Shown: positions 1,901-42,010 of the stretch, one piece after another | Position numbering within the stretch: position 1 is the first letter of the stretch | Layout of the letters: each line of letters opens with the position of its first letter | Source of the DNA: an uncultured Candidatus Bathyarchaeia archaeon | GTDB taxonomy: Archaea; Thermoproteota; Bathyarchaeia; Bathyarchaeales; Bathycorpusculaceae | Length of the DNA stretch: 50,348 bases | Reading direction: 5' to 3' | Assembly: GCA_964354055.1 (NCBI GenBank) | Contig: CAYGYI010000001.1 | Coordinates: 1 to 50,348, forward strand | Position numbers and translations under genes: made by a program | The notes under the pieces: generated by a model | The model's database searches: none | What the model saw: the letters and a program-made list of their open reading frames with translations, nothing else | Told to the model about the DNA's origin: nothing

Positions 1901-1931
1901 GAGCCACGTCTGCAACTCCTAAACCTGACCA

Positions 1932-2338: not shown

Positions 2339-2557
2339 TTCCAGGTTCTCTAATATCCTGTCTAAGCCCGGGTCGCTGCTGCAGAGCCGATTGTATTACA
2401 ATATGCAAGTTGGCGGCGCTGACAGCGTTCGGATCGTTTGGATAACATTCCTGGGCAATAGCACACAAGGCTAGGCCTTTTACGTGTTAGGTCCTGGCCT
2501 TGGGAAAAGGTAATAAGCTCTGTGGGAAATGTGCATTCCGAGGAAAGGAAACGAAGA

Positions 2558-3061
2558 ATGGATGTTCTTGAGGCTATAAGGTCGCGTAGAAGCATCAGAA
2601 AATACAAGATAGAATCTATCCCTGAAGAGAAGCTGAACACTATTCTCGAAGCTGCTCGTCTGGCGCCTTCTGCCGCCAACCGTCAACCATGGCGCTTCGT
2701 AGTAGTCCAAAGCGTAGATCAGAAGAAGGCTCTGGCGGAAGCAGCAAACAATCAGACATTTCTGAGCAACGCTGCCGTGATCGTTGCAGCAGTAGGGGAT
2801 TCAGGGTTGTCTGCAAAATGGCACGAGAAAGACACGATGATAGCCTTGGAGCACATGGTTCTTGCGGCCACGGCTCTTGGCTATGGCACTTGCTGGATAG
2901 GGGCCTTCGACGAAGAGGCGGTGAAGAGTCTTCTAAAGATCCCTGAGAAAATGAAAGTGGTTGCCCTGTTGCCGATCGGTATACCTGATGAGTTACCAGC
3001 CCCCAGACCGAGGAGAGAGTTTTCAGAGACTTTCTTCAAAGAAGAATGGCACCTGCTGTAA
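2558..3061 (+). CDS. nitroreductase family protein
   Basis: The product begins MDVLEAIRSRRSIRKYK and contains PSAANRQPWRFVVV and GYGTCWIG. ATG at 2558 is preceded by a purine-rich stretch (aggaaaggaaacgaaga). The ORF-track GTG start at 2522 is less likely. Confidence 0.9.
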   Translation: MDVLEAIRSRRSIRKYKIESIPEEKLNTILEAARLAPSAANRQPWRFVVVQSVDQKKALAEAANNQTFLSNAAVIVAAVGDSGLSAKWHEKDTMIALEHMVLAATALGYGTCWIGAFDEEAVKSLLKIPEKMKVVALLPIGIPDELPAPRPRREFSETFFKEEWHLL

Positions 3062-3301
3062 ATGTCCTTGGAAAAGAGCTCGCGAAACTGGAATTCCGGC
3101 AGCTCCGAAGAGCGTTCAAACCCGATAATAGTGTGCTATCAGGTGGCCGAAGGTGAGCATGACTTTTTCTCTGTGAAAGAATATGGAGCGTTTGAGGGAT
3201 ATGTCTGCCAGTTGGATATCGCCAAGCACCTGTTCAACGTCTAGGGCTGAATCTTAGCGGATATCGTGTTCAACAAGAACAATGGATATTGAGCGTGTTG
3301 G

Positions 3302-3590: not shown

Positions 3591-6500
3591 TCAACGTTTG
3601 AGCTTGAGCCTAGTTGGTATCAGGTTTCTGAGTATGTCTATTGGTTTGCGTTTCTCTGGAAAGGAAATTTCTGTTTTCCACGCTTGCACGGGTTCGTCTT
3701 CTATGTTGGCTATCTTCTTTTCTACTATGCCGGTTTTTTCTGCGTCAGAGAGTCTCTGGATCAGTTCTTCTTTACTCGTTGTTTGTCCTGTGATGTTTGC
3801 GAAAGCTTGCAGTATGGTGTTCAGTGTGGGTGGTTTTTGTTTTTCGGCTTGTCGGACTGCATCTATGATTTGCTTGTTGGTTTTGGAGAGTTTGCCGTAT
3901 GCTATTGTGTTCTGTTTCTTCTCTTTTCTCTTGTCTAGGGCGTACAGTAGGATTATTGCGACTAGGAATGCCGTTGTTAGGATGAACAGCTTGTCTCCGT
4001 TGTGGGACAGTAGCAGTGCGGTTTGAGACCATGTTTTGATTGATCCCCAATGTTCAGTTATTCGTGTGGCTACTATTAGAAGCTCGCCTTCTATTGCTGG
4101 AACTTCTCTTATTGAGTTTGGGTAAGCTATGACGCTTATTTTCACTTGTTTTGTTTGGGCTGTTGAGTTGATTCTGAAGACTGAGGTTTCGTACCAGTAC
4201 AGCACTGCTTGAGTTTCATTTGTGTCTGTGTAGTTGAAAGCGAAGTAGCGACCGATTATAGGCGGATTCTGGAGTAGTAGGATGTCTCTCAGGTCGATTT
4301 GGTTGACTGTGGGCTGTTTTCCGTGGGTTAGCGGCCATGTTATGAGGCAGGTTTCCCATCGATGAAGCGATGACTTGGCCGAGGCGATTTCCACGGTCAC
4401 CCAGATCCAGTATCCGCTTTCGTTTTCTGGCTCATATAAGTAGATTAGGGACGCGTCCTGCTGGGCTCTTTGTTCGAATGCTTCGTCGCGACCCAGATAG
4501 TGGAGTATGTATTCGTTGAGTTGTGGCAGGAGGGCTGTCGTTGCGTTTCCGCCTGTGGCGGTTTGCGTAATTATCTCTGCCGGGCCTTCTGTTAGCGCGA
4601 ATACTGGTGTTTGTATGGACATGACGAGGACTACGCTGAGGATCAGCGCTGAAACCTTTGCCAGGTCTTTCTTGCGAATCTTGTTGAAGTGCATATTCTG
4701 TATTTTGCCGCACGCGAGACAGAAGTCGTCGGCTGTTTTTGGTTGGGGGCTGCATTCTGGGCATTTCAGTGTCGGTCTTGGCGTTATTCTGGTTTTGAAG
4801 AGTTTTTCTGAGATAACGAGCAGCATGAATGTGCCGAGAAAGATCAGTACCCATCCGCCGAATAGGTGGAACATGTTCAGGGCCAGATCTTCGCCGTAGT
4901 AATATCCTAGTATGCCTATTATTGCGATGCGTAGCACGTTGAGCATGTATATTAGTGGAAATCCTAGAAGGAACATTGCTCCTTTTTTCCAGAGCTTGTC
5001 TCTGATTATGTACGCTATGAAGAGGGCAAAAATGAAGAAGCCTATTTGAGAGTATATGCCTGAACAGGCGATGTCAACTTGTAGAGGAATGATGGTTCCG
5101 TCTGGTTGGGTGACGGTTATTGTCGGTATGCCGTCTATGGTGCTTAGGCTTACTGGGATGCTGAGGATCTTCAATAGGTTGTATGACAAGTCAGAGCTGA
5201 AACTTGAGAGTAGCGAGCCAACGTAGTACAGGATTTCTGCTGGTGGTGGAACGAGCAGAAAGAGGAAGACTATTGGGAAGAGAATTTGTCTTAGGGTCTG
5301 CATGTTAAAGAGTATGAGCACGCACGCTGACACAAAGATCGGCAGTGCCAGCATATGGTATTCCAGCGGGGTGAATGTATAGGAGCCGTACCAGTAGAGC
5401 AGAAGTGAAGCCAGGAAAAGCAATGCGCCCGCAACTTCGTTGAGTGGGATTTTCTTCCACAGTTTTGATGGTTCGAGGGGCACTGCTGCTTTGATCATTT
5501 TTCTTTTGCGGTAGAAAAGGTAGGCGAGCAGGAACGGGATTACGAGTACGTAGCTTGTGACTTCGCTTTGCAGAGCATCAGTGAATATTATAGTTAGGTC
5601 CTGCCAGAACAGCACGAGTGCAGTTGCTCCTACTACGGCGGCTTTGACGATCACAATTAGGGTTTCTCTGGTCGTCGACAGGACCCACTGTTGATATCTT
5701 ATGATTGGGGCTGCAATAAGTGCCAGCAGACGGGTTTTTTTTGTGACCTGTGTGATCATTTGAAGCTCGGATGCGGTCACAATTTTTGTCATTGGCGCCA
5801 ACGTTATGTAGGTGAAAAGGTAAAGGAGGGCGCCTACTCCAAGGTCCGTGATTCTGGACAGATGAGCAAAACGTGTTAGCAGAAGCGGGGGCACGCTGGA
5901 TATGGCTGAAACCAAGTAGATTTTGACGAGAGAACGAGTGTCAAATTCGATGTGAAACTTTCTTCTGGCGCGGTATGAGCCATATGCTATGCCTGCTGTG
6001 CTTGCGATCAGTATAGCTATAATTGAGCCTTGTACGCTGTAAGCGCGTGTGAGTATTGGGGATAGGACAGCAAGTATTACGAAGCCGATTAGGCTTATCA
6101 TTAAAGTAGTTTTTGTTTCTCCTAAGCCATTGAAGAAACTTGTCAGCGTGAGGTAGCCCAGTCCGACGAGAAGATAGATGAGGCAATATGTTGCCAGGAA
6201 TTGCGGAGCCGTCTGGTATTCTAAGCCGTAGATTATCTGCACAATTTGGGTGGAATACATTATGATGAGCACTGTTATCGGCAGAACGAGCTCAGCGGTG
6301 TATTTGTTTGCGAGTTTGAAGAATCTCTTTATCTTCTGGTCTGTTGAAGAATCAAGTTTGGCGAATGCAGGCAACAGCGCAGTGGTTATCGGTATCGAAA
6401 CCACGGACAATAGTGTGGCGAAGTTTGTGGCTGCTTTGTAGTTTCCGACGTCGGCTGTTGTTGTGAAGATTGCCAGCATAAAGCCTTGGTAAAACGAGAT

Positions 6501-7235
6501 GAATCCTGACAGCAGCAAAGAAATGTAAAGTGGTGCGCCGTATTTCATGAGGGTTTTCAGGTCATCTTTGACGTTCTGGTCATTCTTGGGATCTTGCTTT
6601 TTGCGTAGTACGATGAAGAGGATGAAAGCTCCGGCGGCAGCAGCAATTATGTAGCTTGCCACATGTCCCGTTATTGCGCCTGCTACTCCCAAGCCTAGAA
6701 GCACGAGTGCGATGGACAGTATGCTTTTGGCTAGTGCCTGGATGTTTGTTGCCAGCAGGTTGTACTCTGTTTTGTCTAGGCCTACGAATGCTGAGGTTGC
6801 GGTTGAGAATATTACCTGGAAGAGTACTGAAACTGATGCTAACCTGACGTAGAAGGCTAGTTCTGCGCTATTGAGAACTGTCGATGCAAGGAGGTCTGCG
6901 AAGGCGTAGTTTATGATGAATAGGACTATTCCCACCGCTGCTCTGAGTAGTAGAGCGTACTTGAGCATTTTTGTTAGCCGATTTAATTCGCCTTTTGCGT
7001 TGAGACCTGCGGCGAATTTTGTTACGCCCTGTCCTATGCCGAGGTCTGCGAAAAGATAGAGAAGTTGAGGTATAAGAAAGGCGAGCGTGTATTGCCCGTA
7101 CAGGTCAGGACCCAGAAATCTTCCGACAAGTATTGAAGCAACTGCCATGATGACAGTTGCCAGAGCCGTTCCTGAGATCAGAAAGAAGCTACCGCGGGCT
7201 GAATCCTCCGCTATTTTGACTAGTTCATCTGCCAT
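3591..7235 (-). CDS. multidomain membrane protein: Wzx/MOP-like polysaccharide flippase + archaeosortase/exosortase core + Cys4 zinc ribbon + EpsI-like ectodomain + wHTH-like tail
   Basis: Uninterrupted 1214-aa ORF starting at ATG 7235. The motifs are DIACSGIYS, MLNVLRIAI, MFHLFGGW, CPEC-x10-CLAC and LHRWETCL...VLYWYE. About 22 hydrophobic helices are predicted. Confidence 0.9.
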   Translation of the reverse strand: MADELVKIAEDSARGSFFLISGTALATVIMAVASILVGRFLGPDLYGQYTLAFLIPQLLYLFADLGIGQGVTKFAAGLNAKGELNRLTKMLKYALLLRAAVGIVLFIINYAFADLLASTVLNSAELAFYVRLASVSVLFQVIFSTATSAFVGLDKTEYNLLATNIQALAKSILSIALVLLGLGVAGAITGHVASYIIAAAAGAFILFIVLRKKQDPKNDQNVKDDLKTLMKYGAPLYISLLLSGFISFYQGFMLAIFTTTADVGNYKAATNFATLLSVVSIPITTALLPAFAKLDSSTDQKIKRFFKLANKYTAELVLPITVLIIMYSTQIVQIIYGLEYQTAPQFLATYCLIYLLVGLGYLTLTSFFNGLGETKTTLMISLIGFVILAVLSPILTRAYSVQGSIIAILIASTAGIAYGSYRARRKFHIEFDTRSLVKIYLVSAISSVPPLLLTRFAHLSRITDLGVGALLYLFTYITLAPMTKIVTASELQMITQVTKKTRLLALIAAPIIRYQQWVLSTTRETLIVIVKAAVVGATALVLFWQDLTIIFTDALQSEVTSYVLVIPFLLAYLFYRKRKMIKAAVPLEPSKLWKKIPLNEVAGALLFLASLLLYWYGSYTFTPLEYHMLALPIFVSACVLILFNMQTLRQILFPIVFLFLLVPPPAEILYYVGSLLSSFSSDLSYNLLKILSIPVSLSTIDGIPTITVTQPDGTIIPLQVDIACSGIYSQIGFFIFALFIAYIIRDKLWKKGAMFLLGFPLIYMLNVLRIAIIGILGYYYGEDLALNMFHLFGGWVLIFLGTFMLLVISEKLFKTRITPRPTLKCPECSPQPKTADDFCLACGKIQNMHFNKIRKKDLAKVSALILSVVLVMSIQTPVFALTEGPAEIITQTATGGNATTALLPQLNEYILHYLGRDEAFEQRAQQDASLIYLYEPENESGYWIWVTVEIASAKSSLHRWETCLITWPLTHGKQPTVNQIDLRDILLLQNPPIIGRYFAFNYTDTNETQAVLYWYETSVFRINSTAQTKQVKISVIAYPNSIREVPAIEGELLIVATRITEHWGSIKTWSQTALLLSHNGDKLFILTTAFLVAIILLYALDKRKEKKQNTIAYGKLSKTNKQIIDAVRQAEKQKPPTLNTILQAFANITGQTTSKEELIQRLSDAEKTGIVEKKIANIEDEPVQAWKTEISFPEKRKPIDILRNLIPTRLKLKR
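3594..3935 (-). other. domain: charged helical, wHTH-like cytoplasmic tail (aa 1101-1214)
   Basis: NKQIIDAVRQAEKQKPPTLNTILQAFANITGQTTSKEELIQRLSDAEKTGIVEKK resembles the N-terminus of the adjacent DUF1616-like protein. Confidence 0.35.
3936..4664 (-). other. domain: TM-flanked EpsI/DUF3485-like ectodomain (aa 858-1100)
   Basis: A TM helix (VSALILSVVLVMSIQTPVFA) is followed by about 200 aa containing SLHRWETCLITW and QAVLYWYE, then a second TM helix (LFILTTAFLVAIILLYAL). Confidence 0.5.
4710..4763 (-). other. domain: Cys4 zinc-ribbon (CPEC-x10-CLAC)
   Basis: Residues C825, C828, C839 and C842 lie between the last sortase TM helix and the next TM helix. This segment is predicted to be cytoplasmic. 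Confidence 0.6.
4791..5663 (-). other. domain: archaeosortase/exosortase (EpsH-like) core (aa 525-815)
   Basis: Cys724 lies in DIACSG (codon 5064-5066), Arg769 in NVLRI and His790 in MFHLFGGW, all embedded in TM helices. Confidence 0.7.
5691..7235 (-). other. domain: Wzx/MOP-type polysaccharide flippase-like region (aa 1-515)
   Basis: It has 12-14 hydrophobic helices. The N-terminal FFLISGTALATVIMAVASILVGRFLGPDLYG and the overall organisation are typical of polysaccharide biosynthesis (Wzx-like) transporters. Confidence 0.65.
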
Positions 7236-7256: not shown

Positions 7257-7874
7257 CTACGTGGATTTCCTGATTCTGGCTTGGTGTTCTCGTGCCACTG
7301 CGACTGTGGCGAATATGGTTGTAAGCGTCAGCAGGCTTAGTACTATGGGGGTCAGTCGTATGCCCCATGGCGTGTAGTTCAGGAGCAAGCCGACAAGCGG
7401 GACTAATGCTAAGCTTAGACCTATGCTGAGTGCTATGCGTTCCACGGTGTCAAGGTTTGTTGTGGTTTTTATTTGAGCTTGGTTCTCTTTGGGGAATAAG
7501 GCTTTTATGAAGGTGTAGCCAGGCAGCCATAAAACGAAGATTGTGCCGAGAATGTATCTCATGTAAACTAGTGGGAAAGCGTTTTCTGGAATAGCGAAAA
7601 CTACTGCTGCAGTCACCAGAGTCAAAACCATGGTTTCCCAGAACCAGCGGGCTTTTTTTGTCTGCAGGTAGGTTTTCAGGTTTTGAGGTGTGGGTTCTAC
7701 TGGTTCTTTTAAGGTTATTTTTCCCTCGTTTTGAAGGCGAATGACGCAATCAACTATCTCGTGCTCTGTAAGAGAAGGGAGCTTTTCTTTGGCGAGATTT
7801 GCTAGCTCCTCTACGCTTTCGGGTTTGAACTCTCTTATTAACTGGATTATGGCCTCGGCTGTTTCATTCTTCAA
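7257..7874 (-). CDS. DUF1616-like archaeal membrane protein (N-terminal wHTH-like module + 4 TM helices)
   Basis: 205 aa starting at TTG 7874; there is no in-frame ATG nearby. It lies 21 bp upstream of the fusion gene. A TATA-like cttttatag sits about 37 nt upstream on the minus strand. Confidence 0.75.
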   Translation of the reverse strand: MKNETAEAIIQLIREFKPESVEELANLAKEKLPSLTEHEIVDCVIRLQNEGKITLKEPVEPTPQNLKTYLQTKKARWFWETMVLTLVTAAVVFAIPENAFPLVYMRYILGTIFVLWLPGYTFIKALFPKENQAQIKTTTNLDTVERIALSIGLSLALVPLVGLLLNYTPWGIRLTPIVLSLLTLTTIFATVAVAREHQARIRKST

Positions 7875-7970: not shown

Positions 7971-8729
7971 TTACTTCTTTCGTTTGGCTACGCGCAGTAA
8001 TCCTAGAGCTCCGAACGGTGCCGCAACCAGTGCCATTGTTGCCAGTTCTGGAACCACGAGCGTGCTTTTGCTGAATGAGCTGCATGCGTCGAATGGTTGT
8101 GGGGTGACGCATTCTGGACCTACTGATAGCGTGGTGTGTTCATATCTTCCCAGTGCCAGCACTAGAGCTTTGACGCTTGAGACTGGTGAGGTGAACTCGA
8201 GAACCAGCGTGAAGTAGTTTGGCGGCGTTACTCTTATCTTGTTCAAGAAGAATTTGTAGCCGTAGTAGATTGGGTTTCCTGTTTCTCCCATGTTGCTTTT
8301 GACGGCTGCGACTTCATATCGGCATTCTGAACCGGGGTATCCTGTTGCTGAGTTTGCGTTGCCTGGGGGTATCTTCTTGGTTGATGCGGGTATGAGTGCA
8401 AAGTCTGCTTTGGTCATGAATGTTGAACCGTTTATCGTGATTCTGTCAAGAGCATCGTATGTCGGCTTGTTTAGCACTATTAGGAGCCAACCGTTCTTGA
8501 TTTTTCCGCTACCTGTGTGGAAAATCATGAGGTCTGCGGGGGTTGTTGTAATCAGTGGGCCGTCGCTTTTCGCTTCTTCCGTGCCTACGGGTATCACTTT
8601 TATGGTGTGTCTGCACTCCGTACAGTCTATTTCGACAGTGGCGTAAACTAGCGGCGAGAGAACCAGAGTTGCACTCAGAGCAGCTAGTATGACTGTTAAT
8701 GCCAATGTTAGCCTTCTCATGTGAATCAT
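7971..8729 (-). CDS. secreted protein with PEF-CTERM-like (VVPEL) C-terminal sorting signal, paralog 1
   Basis: The signal peptide is MRRLTLALTVILAALSATLVLSPLVYA and the C-terminus is VVPELATMALVAAPFGALGLLRVAKRKK*. ATG at 8729 or 8720 is more likely than the ORF-track GTG at 8747. Confidence 0.85.
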   Translation of the reverse strand: MIHMRRLTLALTVILAALSATLVLSPLVYATVEIDCTECRHTIKVIPVGTEEAKSDGPLITTTPADLMIFHTGSGKIKNGWLLIVLNKPTYDALDRITINGSTFMTKADFALIPASTKKIPPGNANSATGYPGSECRYEVAAVKSNMGETGNPIYYGYKFFLNKIRVTPPNYFTLVLEFTSPVSSVKALVLALGRYEHTTLSVGPECVTPQPFDACSSFSKSTLVVPELATMALVAAPFGALGLLRVAKRKK

Positions 8730-9981: not shown

Positions 9982-11294
9982 GTTGATTGTTCCTCTTCGG
10001 TCTCGTCTAAGAGGACATATTCTATGGTGATTGTCTTGCCGTCTTTGCTGATCTCGTTTCCATTTATCGTGATCGGCTTGCCTGTGGCTTTTGCGAGGAC
10101 GATTGCGATGGCGCTGGAGATGGGGCTACCCAACGACTGTGCTGTGTTTGAAAGTTTGAGGGTTTGTTCGTGAACGTTTTTGAATATGGTGTTTTCGATT
10201 GCGACTTGGACTAGGCCGTTCTTGTTTTCTATTCTTATGTCTTCGGCGATTTCTAGGTCTTCTATGAAGAGTTTCGGCATGTTTTGCTGGACGTAGTTCA
10301 GGTCCACTTTTGTGAAGTTTGTGCCTAGCGTCTTTTCAAAGAGTCTTGCCAGTTCGGCGCCTGGCGGCGTTACTAGGAGAGCTTGGAAGTTTTCGATGTA
10401 GATTTTGTCTTCTTGTTTTTGGATATGTTCTGGCAGTGGCAGTTTGTCGCCTTCGTTTTTGAGCACGCAGGCTTTGCTTGTTTCTGGGTCTTTGAGGTAT
10501 TTTGGCGGCAGGTATATTGTCTTGCCTTTGTATCCAAGTCCCTGCATCGTTTGGTCCAGTGTGAGAAGCTGGGACGATTCTGCTGTATCCAGGAGGGATT
10601 TCTTTGTGTATTCCTCATTCCGGACGTACATGAGTACGGCGCCCCAGAATACCAGCCCTAAGCCGATGAAAGCAAGAATTGACGAACTGTAGCCGATAGA
10701 GGCAACGAGGGCTATGGTGCCTGTGAGTAGCATCAGAAGGCGAGCAAGTTTTGGTGGGTCGATGTCGACCTGTGGGCGTGCGCTGAGGACCATCAGTGTT
10801 GCAGAGAGTATGGTTATTGTGGTGGCGAATCCTTCGAAGGCGAGCATGAAGTCGGCATATGTCCAGTATTTGGTTGCCCATGTGTTGCTGAATTGCAGGC
10901 CGTATTGGTAGAGGTCGCTGTTAACCACGTAATCTAGGCGGCTGAAGGAGACCGCGGAAAGAGCTGTCGTAACAACACCCACGGCGATGAGGATGTAGCT
11001 GACGAATCTTGCGGAAGTGTTGCGGTTTCGCACGTGAATCAGGACTAGCGCCATGGACATTCCTGTTAGAACTATGGAGATTCCGAGAAAGCTCAGGGTG
11101 AGCTTCGAGTAGGTTGAATATTTCGCGTACCATTCATCACTGTACTGTAATCCATGATCATAGAGGTCGCTGTTAACGATGGTGTCTACGCGCATGAAGA
11201 AGAATGCTGAAAGAATGTTCAACGTGATTCCGGCTAGCAAAAGAGCCAGAATCACTTCAGGCTTGAACGGAACGCGCACTTTCATGTCATTCAC
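9978..11294 (-). CDS. polytopic membrane protein with internally duplicated N-terminal module and ~200-aa soluble C-terminal domain
   Basis: 438 aa. The repeated unit is TM - R(V/L)DxxVNSDLYx(H/Y)GLQ(Y/F)SxxWxxKYxTY - TM, seen at aa 11-88 and 96-172. I do not recognise a family. Confidence 0.8.
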   Translation of the reverse strand: MNDMKVRVPFKPEVILALLLAGITLNILSAFFFMRVDTIVNSDLYDHGLQYSDEWYAKYSTYSKLTLSFLGISIVLTGMSMALVLIHVRNRNTSARFVSYILIAVGVVTTALSAVSFSRLDYVVNSDLYQYGLQFSNTWATKYWTYADFMLAFEGFATTITILSATLMVLSARPQVDIDPPKLARLLMLLTGTIALVASIGYSSSILAFIGLGLVFWGAVLMYVRNEEYTKKSLLDTAESSQLLTLDQTMQGLGYKGKTIYLPPKYLKDPETSKACVLKNEGDKLPLPEHIQKQEDKIYIENFQALLVTPPGAELARLFEKTLGTNFTKVDLNYVQQNMPKLFIEDLEIAEDIRIENKNGLVQVAIENTIFKNVHEQTLKLSNTAQSLGSPISSAIAIVLAKATGKPITINGNEISKDGKTITIEYVLLDETEEEQST

Positions 11295-32261: not shown

Positions 32262-32492
32262 TTATGCCTCTTCTAGTAGTTTCATGAATCCCTCTTTTGA
32301 GATTTTCGCGTCCTTGATTATTTTCAAGAGAAGCCCAATGCTGATTCTTTCTCCAGCATGGACAGGGATAACGGTGATTCTTCCATCAAGATGCTTCATG
32401 ACAACGTGACTGCCACGTTTTCTAACGATTCTGAATCCCAGACTTGATAGTGCTTTTATGACTTTCCTAGCTGGCGGGGGTCTGAGGCTCAA
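32262..32492 (-). CDS. hicA: HicA-family mRNA interferase toxin
   Basis: It carries KVIKALSSLGFRIVRKRGSHVVMKH. The TTG start overlaps the hicB stop (TTGA). Confidence 0.8.
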   Translation of the reverse strand: MSLRPPPARKVIKALSSLGFRIVRKRGSHVVMKHLDGRITVIPVHAGERISIGLLLKIIKDAKISKEGFMKLLEEA

Positions 32493-32704
32493 CTGGCAGG
32501 AACCTCTACGAACTGAAAACCGACCAGTTCAATGCCTTCTTTCGATTTTGAACCTTCAGACTCCAAATAAGCTTCAATGGCTTCTTTGATCCTGCGTGTC
32601 AACTCGTCAAGTGTTTTAGCTTGGGTATGGCAGCCTGGAAGCTCTGGAACGGATGCTAGATAGTAGCCATCTTCGTCCTTTTCCAGCAAAACCGCGAATT
32701 TCAA
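32489..32704 (-). CDS. hicB: HicB-like antitoxin (UPF0150 N-terminal domain only)
   Basis: The sequence is MKFAVLLEKDEDGYYLASVPELPGCHTQAKTLDELTRRIKEAIEAYLE. No appended DNA-binding domain is present. Confidence 0.8.
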   Translation of the reverse strand: MKFAVLLEKDEDGYYLASVPELPGCHTQAKTLDELTRRIKEAIEAYLESEGSKSKEGIELVGFQFVEVPAS

Positions 32705-32836
32705 CTGGAACCACCAAAGAGAATTACAGCAGACTATTACTAAAATCTTTGCAGACCTGCCTATGGTGCCGAGGGCCGGGTTTGTGCATTGGGACAGATT
32801 AGGTTGCAGTGATACAGAAGTTGACGTTGTCGTTGG

Positions 32837-32876
32837 CCGGTTTCAGTTTGTTGTTGTGGTGTTTTCTTTGGGTGTT
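32837..32876. repeat. copy A of an imperfect ~40-bp direct repeat (partner at 36146-36191)
   Basis: The sequence is ccggtttcagtttgttgttgtggtgttttctttgggtgtt. It shares an exact 16-mer, agtttgttgttgtggt (32845-32860), with 36162-36177, plus flanking ccggttt and gggtgtt. Confidence 0.6.
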
Positions 32877-33950: not shown

Positions 33951-34269
33951 GCAAACGCCTGCCTTTCGTCTCTCTATGTAGTCTATTGTTATTCTCTACT
34001 TGGTGTGCGCAGGGGAAAAGCATTGACTGCTTTGAATGGGGGTTTGCTTATGATCGATCTTGTTGGTTTTTGTTGTCTTGATGTACGAAGTGGGAAGGAG
34101 GTTACGTTCGGGATGATCAACGCTCTGCTGAAAATGATGGTCCGTTGGTCTAAACATCTTGGGAGGAGCTTGGTTCTGCCTGTACAATGCTGCTGAAATA
34201 GTCGCCAGTTCGTCTTGAAAGCGCTTAGAGATGGAAGTTTTCACCGGTGGTGCACGAAGTCTGGATGAT

Positions 34270-34308
34270 AAAAAAAAGAATTCTTTCTTTTGTGCGTGTT
34301 GGCGCACG
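34270..34308 (-). terminator. short hairpin followed by T8 after the abiE module
   Basis: On the minus strand the stop is followed by a gtgcg/cgcac stem and then TTTTTTTT (A8 at 34270-34277 on the + strand). Confidence 0.5.
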
Positions 34309-35108
34309 CTACGTTGCCAGTCCTCGAAGAAACGTGCCGACTCGTTGAAGCGAGTCGTTTCTCGCATCCTCTGAACCTATGAACCTCGCCACGGCACTAG
34401 GACCCTGAGAGGTCAGTGAAGCAAATGCATCTTTGATTTCGTCTAGGGCCTGTGTCACTATTCTTTCTGACCCCTTCTCTTTCACAGCACTCATGAAGGC
34501 ATCTGAGGCCTGTTTCGGTCCTTTCCCGTAGAAACCGGCTAGAGCGTAGATATCGTAGCTATCCTTGTCCTTCATCCTGTATAGTGTCAGGCCTTTCATC
34601 GTCAATGAAGCAACAATGTTCGCACACCTGAGCTTCGCAGAAGCCTCGCCATCCCCTGGCATCACAGCTCTCAGATCAACTCAAGATTGTGCTTGAACAC
34701 TATCGCACAACCTTCTATGATACAAGCTCTAAGGTTCCGCTGAACTGAAGCCAACCAATCACCTGGAAGCCTCTCAGCACCTTCAGGCTCAGTCAAGAAA
34801 TCCACTTCAATCCTACGGCTGACGCCGCGTCTAGGAGAAGTGACTTCTCTCTCAAAACGGAACACACTTCCTGTCGGTTGATACCCCAACCTTTCCAGAA
34901 TCTGTTTGATATTCTCATATCTTTCGATAACATTGGGTCTGAGTACAAGGTCGATGTCGACTGAGCCACAATGATCAAAATGGTCTTTCACGAGAAAGTA
35001 TGGAGCCCAACCTCCCGCAAGAACCATGTCATGCTGATACTGGCGAAGAGCCCTGCACAACTCAACTAATGCGCCTTTTGAAGCCTCAGTTGCGTCAAGA
35101 TCATACAC
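34309..35108 (-). pseudogene. AbiEii/DUF1814-type nucleotidyltransferase toxin gene split by a frameshift
   Basis: ORF 34671..35108 carries the NTase core (LAGGWAPYF...GSVDIDLVL). ORF 34309..34665 carries the C-terminal part (KDKDSYDIYAL). The two frames overlap only within about 9 nt near 34670-34682. Confidence 0.65.
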
Positions 35109-35775
35109 TCTGGTGCACCTTCCTCTTCTGTTGCCATTCTTCTAGTATCACTTCCAGAAGCTGAGACGCGGCCTCCTCACCTCTAGCTGGAAAATTGTAG
35201 AGATCCACATAGAGCTGAACATTCGAAACAACTCTGGTTCCGCGCACCTCTCGCATTCCATAAAAGACGCCATCATCATAAGGCACGACAAACTTGACAT
35301 TTCCACTTCTAGGTGTGGGATTCAGCTCCAGTTTCTCTGCGATTTTCGGAGCCACATCCTCGGACGGTATATAAAGATGTACATCCACTGGCCGCACGTA
35401 CGGGGCCACAAGCCAAGCAGCAGCTAGTCCCGAAAGGGCATATTTGGGATCTAAGTTAGAGACTTTGTGCACAAACTGATCTATTTCCTTCTCGAAAGTG
35501 AAGTAGTCCAGGAATTTGTTTGCACGATCGTATTGATGGTATGAGGCCCACCTCTTTAGGAGCTTTGTTGGATCAATCAGAAGGATTCGGTTCTGTTCGT
35601 TTCTGGCAGCATAGTTAAGCTCAATCAATGTCTTGCATATGTAGTGAGCCAGGCCATTAGAGACATTTGCCTCTTGCGCAAGTTGTCTTTCGTCCCAGTC
35701 TCTGCCGTGGTTTACGAGCAACACTCGCAAAACCCTAGACGATTTGGCGGCGAATACGTTCTTGACCGTATACAT
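35101..35775 (-). CDS. AbiEi-like antitoxin/transcriptional regulator (wHTH + C-terminal domain)
   Basis: 224 aa. The wHTH-like segment is QLAQEANVSNGLAHYICKTLIELNY. The C-terminus carries VQLYVDLYNFPARGEEAA. Its stop overlaps the GTG start of the NTase gene by 8 nt. Confidence 0.65.
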   Translation of the reverse strand: MYTVKNVFAAKSSRVLRVLLVNHGRDWDERQLAQEANVSNGLAHYICKTLIELNYAARNEQNRILLIDPTKLLKRWASYHQYDRANKFLDYFTFEKEIDQFVHKVSNLDPKYALSGLAAAWLVAPYVRPVDVHLYIPSEDVAPKIAEKLELNPTPRSGNVKFVVPYDDGVFYGMREVRGTRVVSNVQLYVDLYNFPARGEEAASQLLEVILEEWQQKRKVHQSV

Positions 35776-35897: not shown

Positions 35898-36145
35898 AAC
35901 ACGCGTCTTTGAGTCGAGAAGCCTATCTATTCTGGAGGTCATATGACCTATTTAATATGCCACGAGGTCATTAAGACAACCGCAGTCATCCAACCGCACA
36001 ACTCCAACTCGATGAGTTACGACCAACGCAATGTCTTACTTTGATGCGAATATGACGCATGTAGCGGTCTGGTGGATATGTAGGCAATGCGCTTAAAGGT
36101 CGCGTGTTGCCAATATATCGGTAATCCATTCAGACTTCGCTATTA

Positions 36146-36191
36146 CCGGTTTTTATGGTCTAGTTTGTTGTTGTGGTTTTTGTTGGGTGTT
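36146..36191. repeat. copy B of the imperfect ~40-bp direct repeat (partner at 32837-32876)
   Basis: The sequence is ccggtttttatggtctagtttgttgttgtggtttttgttgggtgtt. It lies just 3' of the stop of the hidden tail ORF. Confidence 0.6.
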
Positions 36192-36201
36192 GTGTGGGGT
36201 G

Positions 36202-36480
36202 TTAGTTGTTTGTGATTGTGACGGGGTCGTTTTTGGGTGTTCCGTATGTTTGGCCGTCGTATGGGGTGCAGATGATTTTGATCTGGTCGCTTGTTGTGAA
36301 GTTGTCGGGTGTGAGTGTTTGGTTTGTGGCTCCTGTGATGCTTATCCATGTGCCGGTTTCGTATTTTTGCCATTGGTAGGTGTAGGTTACTGTGTCGCCG
36401 TCTGCGTCGTACGGGTTTGTCGGGTTGGCCGTTAGTGTGCTAGTCGCGTTGACTGGGTCTGGGTTATCGTTACGCTGTCT
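36202..36480 (-). CDS. unannotated 92-codon +1-frame extension of the giant surface protein gene (one more C-terminal repeat module)
   Basis: My own translation of the minus strand gives RQRNDNPDPVNATSTLTANPTNPYDADGDTVTYTYQWQKYETGTWISITGATNQTLTPDNFTTSDQIKIICTPYDGQTYGTPKNDPVTITNN*. It contains no ATG/GTG/TTG, so it is absent from the ORF track. It is homologous to the preceding module of the giant protein. Confidence 0.7.
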   Translation of the reverse strand, partial: RQRNDNPDPVNATSTLTANPTNPYDADGDTVTYTYQWQKYETGTWISITGATNQTLTPDNFTTSDQIKIICTPYDGQTYGTPKNDPVTITNN

Positions 36481-39400
36481 ATGGTGGGGTGTTTTGGATT
36501 GTGACGGTTGGCGACGTTTTGAGGTCTCCGAAGGTTGTTCCGTCTTTGGGCTTCACTGTGAAGAACCATGTTTCGCCTTCTCCAGTCAGGCTAGCGGATA
36601 CTGTGAGGGTGTCGTTCAGGAGTGGTTGGAGTATTCCGTTCTTGTACCAGCGTGTTTCTGTTCCTGATTCAGGGTTGCCTTCAGGGTCAAAGTAGGCGTA
36701 TGTGGCTGCTAGGTTGTCGTTCGTCTTTGGTGAGGTTGGGGTTATCGCGAGGTTCTTTGCTGTTGGCGGGTTATTGATGCCGATCGTTATAGTGTTTGAG
36801 GCTTTTGTGGCTCCGTCTTGGTCGCCGTCGTTGGGGATTACTTCGCATCGCCACGTCTCGCCTGTCTTGGTTTCCTGTGCGGCATTCGCGGAGCTACTGC
36901 TTAGACCGTCTTTACTGTCTAAGAAGTGTTGGTAGACTTGCTGTGGTGAGAGACTTTTCGGGTAGATGGCCACTTCGTCGATCATGCCTTTGAAGTAGTC
37001 AAACCAACCTATGTAAAGCGGGTTGGAGCCGCTTGGCTGAATGTTACCTGTGATTAGTGTTTTTGAGGCATCCTGTACGCCGTTTATGTAAAGTGTCAGT
37101 GCCACGCCGCTTTTGTACGTCAGCACAACGTGATACCACGTGTTCAGCTGGAGTGTGGTGTTGGACGACAATTTGTTGAGGCCGCTAATCATATCGTTTC
37201 CTGTGGCTACCCAGATGCTGGCAAAAAGCTTGTTTCCGCTTATGCCTATCTCGTAGCTGGGTACTCGCGCTATGGTTCTGGTGTTGCTCTGCGAGGCTGT
37301 GAGGTAGATCCAGTGTTCTACGGTTAGTTCTGGCCAGGAGCCTCCGCCGTCGAGTGAGCTTGTTCCCGGGATCTGTATGAAGCCTCTGTTGAATTGGTAG
37401 GCTCCGCCGACTTTTCCGTTGCTTGTCCACTGGGCTCCTCGGACTATTATGCCGTTGTTGTTGTAGCCTGAATAGTCTTCAGTTGTGGTTGAGCTGTTGG
37501 TGTTGAATGGAAGCTGGAGGTTTGTGGTTGAGGTGCCGTTTCTGTACCAATGATAGGTGTTGGTTACTTTGGAGTCGTCTGGGTCATAGGTTGACTGGTT
37601 GTAGCAGACTAGGTTTCCTCCGTTGATCGTCAGGATTGGATCGTGTTGCGTTGGCTGTTCACTTGGTAGCGTTGTGAACGTATACGTCATGTTGGTCCAG
37701 TGTGTTCCGTCGGTGACGCTAACGTGCCACTTGTAGGTTGTCGAGTATTGGAGATTGCTTGCTGGGATTGCGTATCTGCCGTTGCCAATGGCTGACGCTG
37801 AGCCTGAGCCTATGTCAGGGCTTGTAGAAACCACGTAATTCATTGGGTCGCCCTGTGGATCAGTCAAGTTGAAACTTAGTTCAGACAGTGATAGTGGCAC
37901 GTTGGCTGCTTTGTCCGTTGGCGAAGGAGCGAAAACCATGGGCATTTGCGGGATTGTTTCCTCACTTCCTACGGTGTAGAATGCTAACGGGTCTTTCTGG
38001 TTGTTATAACTTGTTTGTATCCATGCGGGTGAGCGGGCAACGTTTGACATTCTTACCTCGTCTATTCCTCCTTTGAGCCATCTCTGGCTGATGTCACTTA
38101 TGAGAAACGGGCTAGTTGTTGTGATCATGGTTTTTCCTATGGGGAAGGTGCCACTGAGCTTTTCGACACCGTCAAGATACACCTTAATCGTTCCGACCTG
38201 AGCGTCCAGCGTGACCGCCAAGTGATGCCACGTATTCCACTTCCAGCCGACATTGCTGCCTTCAATGGATGCTCCGGTACTATCGCTGAACTTAACGTAC
38301 CAGTACGTCCTTCCTTCAGTAGAACCCAACCGTATGTAATACTGACCCCACGTGCCCTTGTTAACAAGATTGATGAAATCGACCGTTGAGGACAGTTTCA
38401 TCCACAGCTCGATCGTGATTGCTGATGTTGGATTCAGACTTGGGGAATTGCCTACTCGGATGTAATCGTTTATGCCGTCGAAAACATCTGCTCCGTCAAT
38501 CTTTCCCGCACCACTCTTGGCAATACTGCCGAAAGTCACTCCATTATTCGCGTTAGTTGTGGAATCGTATCGGCTTGTTGTACCGGACTCTTCCAAGTGC
38601 TGAACCATAACAAAGTTAGAACCCCAAACAGCTGAGACATTCTGCTGGTTCGGTGCTGAGGAGTTGCCGTAATACATGAAGATGGTTGTGTCAGTTGTTG
38701 GTGGGAGTTGAGGTACGTTTACCCATGCTATGATGTGTCCGTTGGTGCTGTTGTAGAGTTCTATTTCGTGGTTGAGTTTGACAGCGTTGGCGTCTGTGAA
38801 GGCGATGTCGTCGCCGTCAGGTTGGGCACTGCTTGCTAGGTTGCTGTCGGTGATGTCTACTAGAACTGGAATGTTCGACGGGTTGCCAGAGACTTTGGTG
38901 TGATCTATTGTTATTGCCTTTCGGTAGGTCCAGTCGCTTTTCCACCATTGAGAGACGGATTTTGTCGTGAAAGTGTAAGTCGCATTTCTAGTGTGTGTTC
39001 CATCTGTTGCTGTTACTGTCCACGTGTAGGTAGTGGAGGGTGAGAGATTGTTAATGAGTAGAGAGTATCTTCCGTTGGCTACGTTGATCTTGCTGTCTGA
39101 ACCTATGTTTGGGGTGGTTGTGACTGTGTAGTTGATGGGGTCATGTTGATAGTCTGTTAGAGTGAATTGGAGTTCAAATGGCGACAGAGGCATGTCTGTC
39201 GCGAGGTTTGGCGGGCTGGGCGAGGTCATTAGAGGGGTCGGTCCGCCTTGGGGTTGTACGTATTCAGCTACTCCGCGTCTGAACTCGCTGTAGAATTGAA
39301 CCTCAGTTCTGGGTCTTGGGTTGGGTCGTCGTGCTGGAGTGTCAAATGCGTATATCGCTCCGCTTTGGGTTGTGACGATTAGTTCGTTGTAGGCGTCGCC

Positions 39401-42010
39401 GTCGATGTCTTGCACTACGGCGTAGTTTAGTGTTCCTGCAAGGCCTGACAGTCCGTCTATGTTTCGCAATTCTTCTCCTGAGCCGACTTCTCCCGAAAGA
39501 CCTACGATTCCGTCTAGTATGTGATAAGAGTTGTCGATGATGAAGATGCTCTTGTAGTTGCATGCGACTATTTCCATGTAGCCGTCGCCATTGACATCGG
39601 CCAGTTGTGGTCCGTAGAAGCATTTTCCGATGTACATTCTTGCGTCTACTTTCCACTTTACGAGGTCCCATATGACGAGGTCGTCGGAAGTCGTATTGTG
39701 GAAGTCAGCCATCAGCATTTCCAGGTTTCCGTCACGATCTATGTCATAGACCGACGATTGATAGTGCGTTGGCGCGTCACTTGGAATGCCGAGTGTCATT
39801 CTTATCGTGCTTCCATCAGTTGAGTTGAGGACGGCTACTCCGCCGTTCAGGTCGCCTATTATGACGTCGAGTGTTCCATCATTGTTGACGTCAGCAATCA
39901 TTGGTTTTTGACTGCTGCAGAAGACTTCCGGACGGGACCATCGCAATGTGAGGTTTCTAGCCCAGAACGACAGTATTCCTTTGCCGTAGTCATTGTCTCC
40001 ATATAATGGGTCATTGAGGTACATGTTTCTCTCGCCCATGTAGATCTCGAACTCTCCGTCAAGGTCCGTATCTGCGATTGACAAGCCTCCACTGCATGGA
40101 CGCCAGATGAACGTTTGTCGGAGTATCTGTCCGTCATAACTTAATGCGGTTAGCCTCCCTGTACCGTTCAGACCTTTGCTGGTGTCAGTTGATCCAACAA
40201 AAACTGTCGGGTAGCCATTTCCGTCAATGTCGAAGATCACTGGGCCCGAGTATGTTTCCTTGCCCAAGCCTGTTGCTCTCCAGTAAATGCTTCCGTCATT
40301 TGCATGCAAAGCAAGTATGCCAGCAGGGGTTTCAAGCGGCACTATTATTTCAAGAATGCCGTCATTGTTCAGGTCGGCCATTTGTGCTTGGGCATGGTCA
40401 CCCATGTTACTATCGGTAATATTCCAGAGTGTGTTTCCATTGGTTCCGTTTAGAGCTATGACTCCGCTTTTCCCAGCGTGAAGGACTTCATCCACGCCAT
40501 CGTTGTTTATGTCAGCTGCAAGTACTCCTGAGACTCCCTTGGGCATTCCTGTCATCATCCACTTTTGCTGGAGTATCTTGCTGGTCGTTGTGAACGAAAA
40601 GGTTCTGTTTGTCCATGACTGCCCATTTGTAGCTTCGACGCCCCAGTAGTACGTTGTACTGAGGTTTTGCATCTGAGTTGGAATTGCGGTGTAGGTTCCG
40701 CTGGGCACATTTTGGAAGGTCTCAATGGCTGTCCACGTGTTCGATATTCTTTGTTTGAAGGTTACAGTCATGTTCAGCCCATTTGGATCGACTGCCCTAA
40801 CCGACAGTGTCGGATTGGTGTACACACCTGTAGCCTCATTCTTCGGACTCTCAAAAATCAGTAGAGCAAGAGAGTGCGCCTCTTCGCCCACTATTGTGTA
40901 GAATGCTGACGGGTCTTTCTGGTTGTTGTAACTTGTTTGAATCCAAGAGGGCAAACGAGCGACGTTTGATATTCGGACTTCATCTATTTCTCCTTTGACC
41001 CATCTTTGGCTGATATCACTCAGAAGAAGCGGGTTAGTTGTTGCAATGATGGTTTTTCCAGCGGCGAACGTGCCGCTGAGCTTTTCGACACTGTCAAGAT
41101 ACACCTTAATCGTTCCAGCTTGAGCGTCCAGCGTGACCGCCAAGTGATGCCACGTATTCCACTTCCAGCCGATATTGCTGCCTTCTACCGTCGCCACTGT
41201 GCCATCGCTGAACTTGACATACCAGTACGTCCTTCCCTCAGCAGAACCCAACCTCAAATAACACTGGCTCCACGTACCCTTGTTGATGAGATTGATGTAA
41301 TTGCCTGTAGAGGATAGCTTCATCCACGACTCGATGGTTATGGCTGACGCTGGGTTCAAGCTTGGTGAATCACTCACTCTGAGGTAATCGTTTGTGCCGT
41401 CGAAAACATCTGCTCCGTCAATTTTTCCCGCAACATTCTTGGCAATGCCGCCAAAAGTCACCCCGTTGTTCGCTCTGATTGTAGAATCGTACCGACTTGC
41501 TATACCGGACTCTTCCAAGTGCTGAACCATAACATAGTTGGAACCCCAAACAGCCGAAGCATTCTGCTGGCTTGTTGCAAGAGGGTTGCCATAGTACATG
41601 AAGAGTTCCGTGTCAGCAGTTGAGGAGAGTAGTGGTATTTGTATCCATGCAACCAAGTGACCTGAATTGCCGTCATAGAATTCGATTTCGTGATTGAGTG
41701 TGCTGTTGTGGTCGAGGGTGAATATGATGTCACTGCCGCTGGATTGAGCTTTTGCCTTCAAGTCGGAATCAATAATGTCTATGAGAACAGGAAAGTTCAG
41801 TATGTCAGCTATCACTTTGGTGTGGTCTATGATTATCTGTTTCCTGAAGTTCCAGTTTTCGTTCCACCATGGAGGCTGAGACCATGTGGGCTGGATCAGA
41901 AGAAACAGAGGAATAGTAAACAAGCTGCTGAAGAGCAGACAAGTTATGAAAGTGCCTCGGAGTCTCCGCTTATGAAGTCTGAACATGATTGAATTCAACC
42001 CTTCTCCCAT
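36479..42010 (-). CDS. giant secreted adhesin-like protein: (DUF2341-like + LamG-like + FN3/PKD-like) x2 around an FG-GAP/VCBS beta-propeller, third LamG-like domain, C-terminal Y-x-Y-x-D-x-D/E-G repeat modules
   Basis: 1843 aa with an N-terminal hydrophobic signal or anchor. Eight D-x-[DN]-x-D-G-x-x-[DE] repeats are present (DINNDGVDEV, DLNNDGILEI, DIDGNGYP, DTDLDGEFEI, DVNNDGTLDV, DIDRDGNLEM, DVNGDGYMEI, DIDGDAYNEL). Confidence 0.92.
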   Translation of the reverse strand: MGEGLNSIMFRLHKRRLRGTFITCLLFSSLFTIPLFLLIQPTWSQPPWWNENWNFRKQIIIDHTKVIADILNFPVLIDIIDSDLKAKAQSSGSDIIFTLDHNSTLNHEIEFYDGNSGHLVAWIQIPLLSSTADTELFMYYGNPLATSQQNASAVWGSNYVMVQHLEESGIASRYDSTIRANNGVTFGGIAKNVAGKIDGADVFDGTNDYLRVSDSPSLNPASAITIESWMKLSSTGNYINLINKGTWSQCYLRLGSAEGRTYWYVKFSDGTVATVEGSNIGWKWNTWHHLAVTLDAQAGTIKVYLDSVEKLSGTFAAGKTIIATTNPLLLSDISQRWVKGEIDEVRISNVARLPSWIQTSYNNQKDPSAFYTIVGEEAHSLALLIFESPKNEATGVYTNPTLSVRAVDPNGLNMTVTFKQRISNTWTAIETFQNVPSGTYTAIPTQMQNLSTTYYWGVEATNGQSWTNRTFSFTTTSKILQQKWMMTGMPKGVSGVLAADINNDGVDEVLHAGKSGVIALNGTNGNTLWNITDSNMGDHAQAQMADLNNDGILEIIVPLETPAGILALHANDGSIYWRATGLGKETYSGPVIFDIDGNGYPTVFVGSTDTSKGLNGTGRLTALSYDGQILRQTFIWRPCSGGLSIADTDLDGEFEIYMGERNMYLNDPLYGDNDYGKGILSFWARNLTLRWSRPEVFCSSQKPMIADVNNDGTLDVIIGDLNGGVAVLNSTDGSTIRMTLGIPSDAPTHYQSSVYDIDRDGNLEMLMADFHNTTSDDLVIWDLVKWKVDARMYIGKCFYGPQLADVNGDGYMEIVACNYKSIFIIDNSYHILDGIVGLSGEVGSGEELRNIDGLSGLAGTLNYAVVQDIDGDAYNELIVTTQSGAIYAFDTPARRPNPRPRTEVQFYSEFRRGVAEYVQPQGGPTPLMTSPSPPNLATDMPLSPFELQFTLTDYQHDPINYTVTTTPNIGSDSKINVANGRYSLLINNLSPSTTYTWTVTATDGTHTRNATYTFTTKSVSQWWKSDWTYRKAITIDHTKVSGNPSNIPVLVDITDSNLASSAQPDGDDIAFTDANAVKLNHEIELYNSTNGHIIAWVNVPQLPPTTDTTIFMYYGNSSAPNQQNVSAVWGSNFVMVQHLEESGTTSRYDSTTNANNGVTFGSIAKSGAGKIDGADVFDGINDYIRVGNSPSLNPTSAITIELWMKLSSTVDFINLVNKGTWGQYYIRLGSTEGRTYWYVKFSDSTGASIEGSNVGWKWNTWHHLAVTLDAQVGTIKVYLDGVEKLSGTFPIGKTMITTTSPFLISDISQRWLKGGIDEVRMSNVARSPAWIQTSYNNQKDPLAFYTVGSEETIPQMPMVFAPSPTDKAANVPLSLSELSFNLTDPQGDPMNYVVSTSPDIGSGSASAIGNGRYAIPASNLQYSTTYKWHVSVTDGTHWTNMTYTFTTLPSEQPTQHDPILTINGGNLVCYNQSTYDPDDSKVTNTYHWYRNGTSTTNLQLPFNTNSSTTTEDYSGYNNNGIIVRGAQWTSNGKVGGAYQFNRGFIQIPGTSSLDGGGSWPELTVEHWIYLTASQSNTRTIARVPSYEIGISGNKLFASIWVATGNDMISGLNKLSSNTTLQLNTWYHVVLTYKSGVALTLYINGVQDASKTLITGNIQPSGSNPLYIGWFDYFKGMIDEVAIYPKSLSPQQVYQHFLDSKDGLSSSSANAAQETKTGETWRCEVIPNDGDQDGATKASNTITIGINNPPTAKNLAITPTSPKTNDNLAATYAYFDPEGNPESGTETRWYKNGILQPLLNDTLTVSASLTGEGETWFFTVKPKDGTTFGDLKTSPTVTIQNTPP
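37973..38935 (-). repeat. intragenic duplication, copy 2 (aa 1026-1346 of the giant protein)
   Basis: It runs from WTYRKAITIDHTKV to AFYT. The core is 38147-38638. Confidence 0.85.
39341..40543 (-). other. domain: FG-GAP/VCBS-type beta-propeller region of the giant protein (aa 490-890)
   Basis: Eight calcium-binding-like D-x-N-x-D-G loops occur at roughly regular spacing. Confidence 0.65.
40886..41854 (-). repeat. intragenic duplication, copy 1 (aa 53-375 of the giant protein)
   Basis: It runs from WNFRKQIIIDHTKV to AFYT. The core aa 152-315 (41066-41557) is about 85 percent identical at protein level to aa 1125-1288, and long near-identical DNA runs are visible (for example 41101-41160 vs 38181-38240). 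Confidence 0.85.

Follow-up and report, generated by a model that had tools for sequence, protein, structure and literature searches.

A probable young relic of the last domain of a giant surface-protein gene, lying behind its stop codon in an uncultured Candidatus Bathyarchaeia archaeon

The stretch of DNA analysed here (hereafter the window) comprises 50,348 nucleotides (nt) of contig CAYGYI010000001.1 from an uncultured Candidatus Bathyarchaeia archaeon and carries a gene for a giant secreted or surface protein of 1843 amino acids (aa). A hydrophobic signal or anchor lies at the N-terminus of the protein, which also contains two DUF2341 and three LamG (Laminin_G_3) stretches, FG-GAP repeats, FN3-like stretches, a last LamG domain and one WYKNG-type β-sandwich module; its ending, ...TVTIQNTPP, is directly followed by a TAG stop codon. 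The open reading frame (ORF) runs on the minus strand over 42010..36479 and ends with ...AAC ACC CCA CCA TAG, the TAG being at 36481..36479. An original prediction, made from the letters of the window, held that this TAG is followed by a hidden coding tail in the +1 frame that encodes another copy of the preceding module. Reading in the +1 frame from the A at 36480 yields exactly the 92-residue peptide quoted in that prediction and ends at a TAA at 36204..36202. Very probably, the tail represents the last domain of a modular surface-protein gene, orphaned by two small deletions, and is an ordinary, young relic. The features of the gene and of its junction with the tail are given in Table 1.

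Table 1. Positions of the giant gene, the two lesions and the severed module in the window
Feature	Position	Strand	Basis
Truncated allele of the gene for the giant secreted or surface protein (1843 aa)	36479..42010	-	End-to-end alignment with L011
First lesion, CCA CCA TAG, presumed loss of one CCAT unit	36479..36487	-	Linker of the relatives
IDSVTIT (ATA GAC AGC GTA ACG ATA ACC), first β-strand of the severed module	36462..36482	-	Third frame
Second lesion, CCC run against CCCC in L013 (ACC CCA GAC = T-P-D)	36461..36463	-	Comparison with L013
Remainder of the QWQKY-type module, 86 codons (PDPVNATSTL...VTITNN) and TAA	36202..36462	-	+1 frame; tblastn, 48-64% identity

The +1 frame is open from stop to stop over 36552..36202, which corresponds to 117 codons, and it contains no ATG, GTG or TTG, hence it is invisible to ORF finders. 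The other ORFs called mechanically over the same DNA lie at 36143-36373 on the minus strand and at 36187-36435, 36206-36379 and 36392-36667 on the plus strand. Since four stop-free runs of 86 to 121 codons occur in alternative same-strand frames inside the giant gene itself, the openness of the tail alone is unremarkable, and it is homology rather than openness that indicates that the tail is real coding DNA. Neither stop-codon readthrough nor pyrrolysine explains the arrangement, as the original prediction had recognised: frame 0 after the TAG reads ACA GCG TAA and so meets another stop two codons on. TAG is an ordinary stop codon in the window, where it ends 12 of the 31 ORFs of at least 200 aa. 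Separate expression of the tail was considered and rejected because the tail frame has no start codon; in a close allele, L013, an ATG-started ORF of 122 aa spans the tail, but it starts inside the giant gene, 90 nt before the TAG.

When homologues are aligned to the window by tblastn, each of them splits at the TAG, the first part matching in frame -2 up to 36482 and the second part in frame -3 over 36501..36208 with 48-64% identity and joint E-values of 1e-45 to 1e-63. When the last upstream module and the tail are searched together, both parts are found as one continuous polypeptide in P0002 (67% identity) and P0008 (71%), and the same continuous arrangement in P0005, P0006, P0009 and P0010. 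By two-sequence BLASTP, the tail shows no significant similarity to the protein upstream of it (E = 0.077 and 0.11). For hhalign, profiles were built for the WYKNG type (A2, 12 sequences) and for the QWQKY type (A3, 13 sequences), to which the tail belongs, and the two families align over 88 columns with 26% identity, a probability of 97.6% and an E-value of 2.6e-12. The similarity to the upstream module, on which the original prediction had staked itself, is therefore significant at the profile level, and the designation of the tail as another copy holds as far as homology is concerned. It does not hold in the sense of a plain copy: by profile comparison, the tail is a remote paralogue of the preceding WYKNG module and represents a distinct subfamily of the QWQKY type.

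An AlphaFold model, built on a homologue module 71% identical to the tail and not on the window sequence itself, has six strands, with a predicted local distance difference test (pLDDT) score of 92.6 and a predicted template modelling (pTM) score of 0.81. This model resembles the N-terminal domain of PDE12 and FN3 domains (template modelling scores of 0.6-0.75), with FN3/Ig-like matches. No Pfam model reaches its threshold for the tail module, the best being PF21171 (PDE12-like_N) with 17.9 bits against a cut-off of 27. The tail family is thus like the Ig/FN3-like β-sandwich repeats of archaeal and bacterial LamG/DUF2341 surface proteins in being modelled as a six-strand β-sandwich, but differs from them in that its module type is uncatalogued, without a Pfam model at threshold.

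Intact counterparts of the whole gene exist. The L011 locus carries an intact ORF of 1894 aa that is colinear with the giant protein plus the reconstructed tail at 58% identity (residues 35-1934 against 1-1894). Single-frame matches of 375 nt across the junction are found in L008-L012, L014 and L016, and P0002, P0005, P0006, P0008, P0009 and P0023/L028 are also contiguous in one frame across it. In L011, L012, P0002 and P0023, a stop lies within a few residues of the end of the QWQKY module. Since these intact homologues stop right after the QWQKY module, the TAA of the tail would be the ancestral stop codon of the gene; no PKD-like domain or sorting signal was found beyond the tail in the window. 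The family varies at its C-terminus. P0024 (L027 599-3010), which does not reach either edge of its contig, has its natural end behind one WYKNG module (…VIIQNGV-stop), and no QWQKY relic follows downstream; P0027, P0028, P0029 and P0032 end before any module, and other members add a PKD-like domain. It is therefore plausible from this comparison of architectures that a protein ending at ...IQNTPP is a functional form, and the best reading is that the truncated allele would be viable, its architecture being a natural one in the family, as exemplified by P0024 and by the members that end earlier.

A separate observation among the relatives concerns a chimeric ORF in the Bathyarchaeota metagenome-assembled genome (MAG) L001 (7746-8660) and in three contigs of the Joint Genome Institute (JGI), L008, L009 and L010. 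In this type of chimera, an N-terminal fragment of Polysacc_synt continues in frame into the end of a WYKNG module plus a QWQKY module. An in-frame TAA stands where relatives have GAA (Glu), again right after ...SNTPP, and the PKD-like domain that comes next contains a TAG in place of the TGG (Trp) of relatives. The chimera looks like a decaying remnant shared by L001, L008, L009 and L010.

The original prediction placed a single frame change, into +1, exactly at the stop codon. This is not borne out by the homologues, which read on without interruption across the junction as ...TIQN(T/S)PP-x-I-x-x-V-T-I-T-P-D-P-A..., with the family consensus xIxxVTITPDP. The third-frame translation of the corresponding stretch of the window is KHPTIDSVTITQTQ, and its IDSVTIT lies outside both the ORF frame and the predicted +1 frame. 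The domain enters the +1 frame only from CCA GAC CCA, 36462 onward, and RQRNDN is a wrong-frame reading of the first strand. The original prediction was right that the stretch behind the TAG truly codes for a further C-terminal module, except that the first six residues of the predicted peptide are not part of the domain. IDSVTIT itself is within the domain: the hhalign alignment begins at DSVTIT, and the segment forms strand E4-8 in the AlphaFold model of the homologue, whose first 10-residue block has a pLDDT of 94. A single +1 shift at the stop codon was rejected because the conserved IDSVTIT is in the third frame and because the +1 frame is closed in L013.

Comparison of the junctions at the nucleotide level locates two lesions. 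The intact relatives read ACC CCA CCA TCC ATC in L011 and L028 and ACT CCG CCA TCC ATC in L012. The window and its two closest alleles, L013 and L015, are alike at the first lesion, with CCACCATAGAC, and the junction of L013 and L015 reads CCACCATAGACAGCGTAA. At the second site, L013 has GATAACCCCAGACC, whereas the window and L015 have GATAACCCAGACC. Accordingly, L013 reads IDSVMITPDPANATSTL... in one frame, -1 relative to the main ORF, with a -1 overlap of 90 nt, confirming the reconstruction of the domain. The corresponding stretch has 30 nt in the intact relatives, L011 and L028 among them, 26 nt in L013 and 25 nt in the window and L015, indicating two separate deletions. The length of the linker in the relatives suggests that the first event was, most parsimoniously, the loss of one CCAT from a CCAT-CCAT tandem, that is, of 4 nt; with a loss of 1 nt, the alternative, the linker would fall short of that of all relatives by one residue. 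The second lesion moves the rest of the domain from the -1 to the +1 frame relative to the main ORF. Since -4 and -1 sum to -5, which equals +1, the tail appeared as a +1 tail in the original prediction.

The two close alleles come from a metagenome scan. Over 3057 nt, L013 (Ga0315279_10004599) shares 95% identity with the window, and the site of the second lesion is the only gap in this alignment; L015 (Ga0315285_10000015) is 91% identical over 1841 nt, with no gap. The giant ORFs of L013 and L015 (1832 and 1829 aa) stop at the same TAG as that of the window. These alleles bear directly on whether the lesions are errors of sequencing or assembly, in which case the gene would really be intact, with a true junction of CCATCCATAG and CCCC. 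Both lesions do lie in short repeats or homopolymers, which are contexts of indel errors for some platforms, but the identical first lesion is present in two other assemblies, which come from different samples and have 5% and 9% base differences, and the second lesion is also present in L015. Moreover, the presumed 4-nt loss is not a homopolymer miscount, and the other large genes of the window that were checked look intact, as exemplified by a 790-aa subtilase that has the length of an ORF of L011. Thus, a simple read or assembly error, which the original prediction had allowed for, is not supported and is almost certainly not the explanation; to judge from the aligned alleles, the lesions are real and inherited. 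Other broken genes of the window were also considered as a sign of sequencing error and rejected, the candidates being separate genes (a HicA/HicB pair, and a UbiA gene beside an ORF of 481 aa).

L015 shows a further peculiarity. Downstream of its giant gene lie two additional degenerate copies of the latter half of the tail, at about 8500-8650 and about 10950-11100, with 87% and 82% nucleotide identity to the tail of the window. Cys is replaced by Leu in both copies, and one of them has an in-frame stop. Module relics accumulate downstream of this gene.

The whole-protein identity among the lesion-bearing alleles is only 70-74%, so that the lesion must have spread or persisted among them. Their divergence is mosaic: the 5' two-thirds of the giant gene (38600-42010 of the window) are 76-87% identical and the 3' third (36200-38050) is 91-95% identical, and the synonymous divergence (dS) varies from about 0 to 0.35 between adjacent blocks of 100-200 codons, one 100-codon block having a dS of about 0. 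This pattern of identities indicates recent recombination or gene conversion within the giant gene. In L013, 9 non-synonymous changes are clustered within codons 34-43 and are like other alleles, in the manner of a conversion tract. The state of the C run conflicts with the similarity tree of the tails, because the window and L013 are closest, yet C3 is common to the window and L015; hence at least two changes or recombination must have occurred.

The mosaic divergence, the conversion-like cluster in L013 and the conflict between the C3/C4 state and the tail tree would also be expected of an on/off polymorphism, in which intact and lesion alleles coexist and recombine and in which one or two CCAT units and C3 or C4 act as mutable switches. 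The tails would then be repeatedly refreshed from, or restored to, functional copies, with CCATCCAT or C4 variants coexisting in the source metagenomes, and this would account for substitutions on the L015 lineage that look selected. However, the collections searched contain no lesion-free allele closer than about 67-73% amino-acid identity, and all three close alleles have the first lesion. Repeats of one or two units are also far too short for classical high-rate phase variation. Such a polymorphism is therefore unlikely.

Another possibility is recoding, in which the tail is still translated at some level by frameshifting near the Pro-Pro-stop and the domain is kept under selection. In the window and L015, this would take a +1 shift at CCA CCA UAG (TPP-RQRNDN-PDP...), and in L013 a -1 shift (TPP-IDSVMIT-PDP...), and the junction peptides to be expected are TPPIDSVTIT... 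and TPPRQRNDNPDP.... A C-terminal Pro before a stop slows termination, and the TAG lesion occurs in three diverged alleles whose tails are all open, both of which speak for such a process. The site lacks the hallmarks of programmed recoding as set out in a review (PMC8211752). No slippery X XXY YYZ heptamer is present at AAC ACC CCA CCA TAG ACA, and a tRNA on CCA would not re-pair with CAU in +1 and would re-pair only poorly with ACC in -1, so that the slow Pro-Pro-stop context is all that the site has of a shift-prone sequence. Behind the TAG, 109 nt fold with -10.8 kcal/mol against a mean of -14.5 for shuffled sequences (z = +1.38), 188 of 200 shuffles folding at least as well, and Rfam gives no match at E <= 1.

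The frame relation between gene and tail is also not conserved among the carriers of the TAG site, being -1 in L013 and +1 (or two -1 shifts) in the window and L015, and more distant relatives are contiguous. Recoding would accordingly need a different shift in different alleles: in L013 a stop closes the +1 frame after 13 codons, and in the window the -1 frame ends after 18. Furthermore, a +1 product would lack β-strand A of the domain. The original prediction had proposed a search for further Pro codons followed by a stop and an open frame as signs of a systematic phenomenon; no other case exists among the 31 ORFs of at least 200 aa in the window, and the long open frames behind the other stop codons of the window are the next genes. 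Taken with the substitution data considered below, recoding is quite improbable.

Two known kinds of frameshifting are relevant for comparison. Stop-stimulated +1 frameshifting is known from bacterial prfB, at CUU UGA C, and from Euplotes, at AAA UAA/UAG, where the P-site tRNA re-pairs in the +1 frame (CUU to UUU, and AAA to AAU/AAA). The giant gene is like these sites in having a stop codon in the A site and an open +1 frame for the remainder of the protein, as the original prediction proposed, but differs in that CCA to CAU allows no re-pairing, in that a +1 shift would replace a conserved strand with RQRNDN, and in that the +1 frame of L013 is closed. In Saccharolobus solfataricus, fucA1 is expressed by a -1 frameshift with a slippery heptamer (A-AAA-AAT), rare codons on its flanks and a putative stem-loop; its position is the same in strains P2 and 98/2, and programmed frameshift sites have a stimulatory RNA structure 5-9 nt downstream (PMC8211752). 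The likeness to fucA1 lies in overlapping frames for N- and C-terminal parts that are contiguous in relatives, which in L013 take the form of a -1 relation with a 90-nt overlap; unlike fucA1, the giant gene has no heptamer, no structure and no constant frame relation.

The ratio of non-synonymous to synonymous divergence (dN/dS) was calculated by the method of Nei and Gojobori for the tail, read in its own frame, in the three alleles (window, L013 and L015), a comparison that is confounded by mosaic recombination. The tail gives 1.05 for the window against L013, 0.29 for the window against L015 and 0.35 for L013 against L015. For comparison, the 500 codons upstream give 0.25-0.32 in all pairs, the translated upstream gene ranges up to 0.44, and wrong-frame controls of the tail give 0.62-1.5. 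Some of these data weigh against the tail being an untranslated relic. The values of 0.29-0.35 in the comparisons with L015 are like those of the translated upstream gene and below those of the wrong-frame controls, and 8 of the 16 differences between the tails of the window and L015 are synonymous, 9 being at third positions (permutation P = 0.0055). If the lesion is older than the split of the alleles, this signal on the L015 lineage would mean purifying selection after the lesion. The tail of the window retains every family-invariant residue. All three tails are free of stops, which counts only weakly because the chance of obtaining no stop from the observed substitutions is about 0.5.

The same observations, namely a dN/dS of about 0.3 with a synonymous excess on the L015 lineage and the retention of all family-invariant residues in the tail of the window, are those that recoding would explain. 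In its most specific form, slow termination at Pro-Pro-UAG would permit a shift that needs no classical slippery site (-1 in L013, +1 in the window and in L015), and the severed domain would be made in some molecules. A fraction of the surface protein would then carry a C-terminal module under purifying selection, which would account for the ratio of about 0.3 on the L015 lineage and for the intact invariant residues, and the site would be a structure-independent, stop-stimulated frameshift in an uncultured archaeon. This form is highly improbable. The ratio of 1.05 between the window and L013 speaks against recoding, and mosaic recombination is another source of substitutions that look selected: plausibly, the substitutions of L015 had passed through selection in intact alleles before recombination brought them together with the lesion, without any need for translation of the tail. 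Signs of decay are present in L015, where Thr replaces an otherwise invariant Ile and the 3' end is rearranged, and the degenerate copies downstream of its giant gene, one with an in-frame stop, belong to these signs too. The ratio of 1.05 and the second indel, which is polymorphic among the alleles, are signs of relaxed constraint, and a polymorphic second lesion is as expected of an unconstrained remnant.

The relic reading leads to the following plausible history. The ancestral gene would have had a WYKNG-type module, then an in-frame QWQKY-type β-sandwich module and then a stop codon. Replication slippage may have removed one unit of CCAT-CCAT, converting CCA CCA TCC ATA GAC to CCA CCA TAG AC, thereby creating the TAG directly behind ...IQNTPP and putting the last module out of frame (-1, equal to +2). 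The TAG-bearing allele would have persisted and spread by recombination among diverged strains, represented by the window, L013 and L015, and a deletion from C4 to C3, 21 nt downstream, would have moved the remnant into the +1 frame in the window and L015. The cell would now make the 1843-aa protein without its last domain, and the 3' remnant would be untranslated and too young to have acquired stop codons.

In agreement with this history, relatives carry both parts in one frame, the indels are located, with -4 (or -1) at CCACCA^TAG and -1 at ACC^CAG, and the lesion is present in independent data. The locus is like other frameshift-truncated genes with a 3' relic in its presumed deletion by short-repeat slippage, its premature stop, the persisting out-of-frame remainder and the further indel, and also in that intact orthologue-like genes exist elsewhere and that the family varies in the number of its C-terminal modules. 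It differs from them in that the main gene is not dead, only the last ~94 of ~1937 residues being lost, in that the lesion is common to alleles of 70-74% identity, and in that part of the divergence of the tail looks selected. Most likely, therefore, the event is of a known, ordinary kind and not a new form of decoding.

The relic reading has its main consequence for annotation, as a caution and a correction. In an annotation, the gene should appear as an allele that is truncated at its C-terminal end and followed by a 3' relic, made up of the third-frame segment 36482-36462 and the +1-frame segment 36462-36202, and neither as a recoding site nor as an assembly error. It would also illustrate the remodelling of C-terminal module arrays in LamG/DUF2341 proteins by short-repeat slippage, recombination of alleles and downstream module relics. 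If the tail had been selected after the lesion, non-canonical frameshifting at a Pro-Pro-stop in archaea would be implied, a consequence that carries little weight at present.

Both for the giant protein and for locus L001, the named relatives are Candidatus Bathyarchaeota MAGs. The window is archaeal and contains a gene of the digeranylgeranylglycerophospholipid reductase family and a UbiA prenyltransferase gene. An exact-protein look-up returned no record for the giant protein, with two choices of start, or for one neighbouring gene. The giant gene is surrounded by glycosyltransferase genes, a Polysacc_synt-Exosortase_EpsH fusion gene and toxin-antitoxin cassettes. The fusion gene, an ORF of 1214 aa at 3591-7235 (minus strand), joins Polysacc_synt (flippase-like) and Exosortase_EpsH domains; in L011, the giant gene is immediately followed by a Polysacc_synt-like ORF, and in L028 an Exosortase_EpsH gene is found two genes behind it. 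The placement of these genes suggests that a neighbourhood for surface glycans and sorting is conserved. The giant protein itself showed no C-terminal sorting signal.

A GT4 gene directly follows the giant gene in relatives (L028), whereas an AbiEi cassette intervenes in the window and L013. In the window, this cassette occupies 33996-35775 (minus strand) and comprises an AbiEi-like antitoxin gene at 35101-35775, followed by three small ORFs in alternating frames that have no match in Pfam, NCBIfam or PADLOC, and contains no recognisable AbiEii toxin. Given the position of GT4 directly behind the giant gene in L028, the cassette looks like an insertion. A HicA/HicB toxin-antitoxin pair lies at 32265-32842 (minus strand). 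An ORF of 205 aa at 7257-7874 (minus strand) has a DUF1616 match that covers profile positions 4-118 of 307, and may be another truncated gene. At 1717-3135 (minus strand), overlapping open frames are stacked in all three minus-strand frames; one of the ORFs, at 1935-2261, has a partial BPL_N/GATase match (profile positions 51-104 of 283, E = 7e-15), and the stack may be a fragmented gene.

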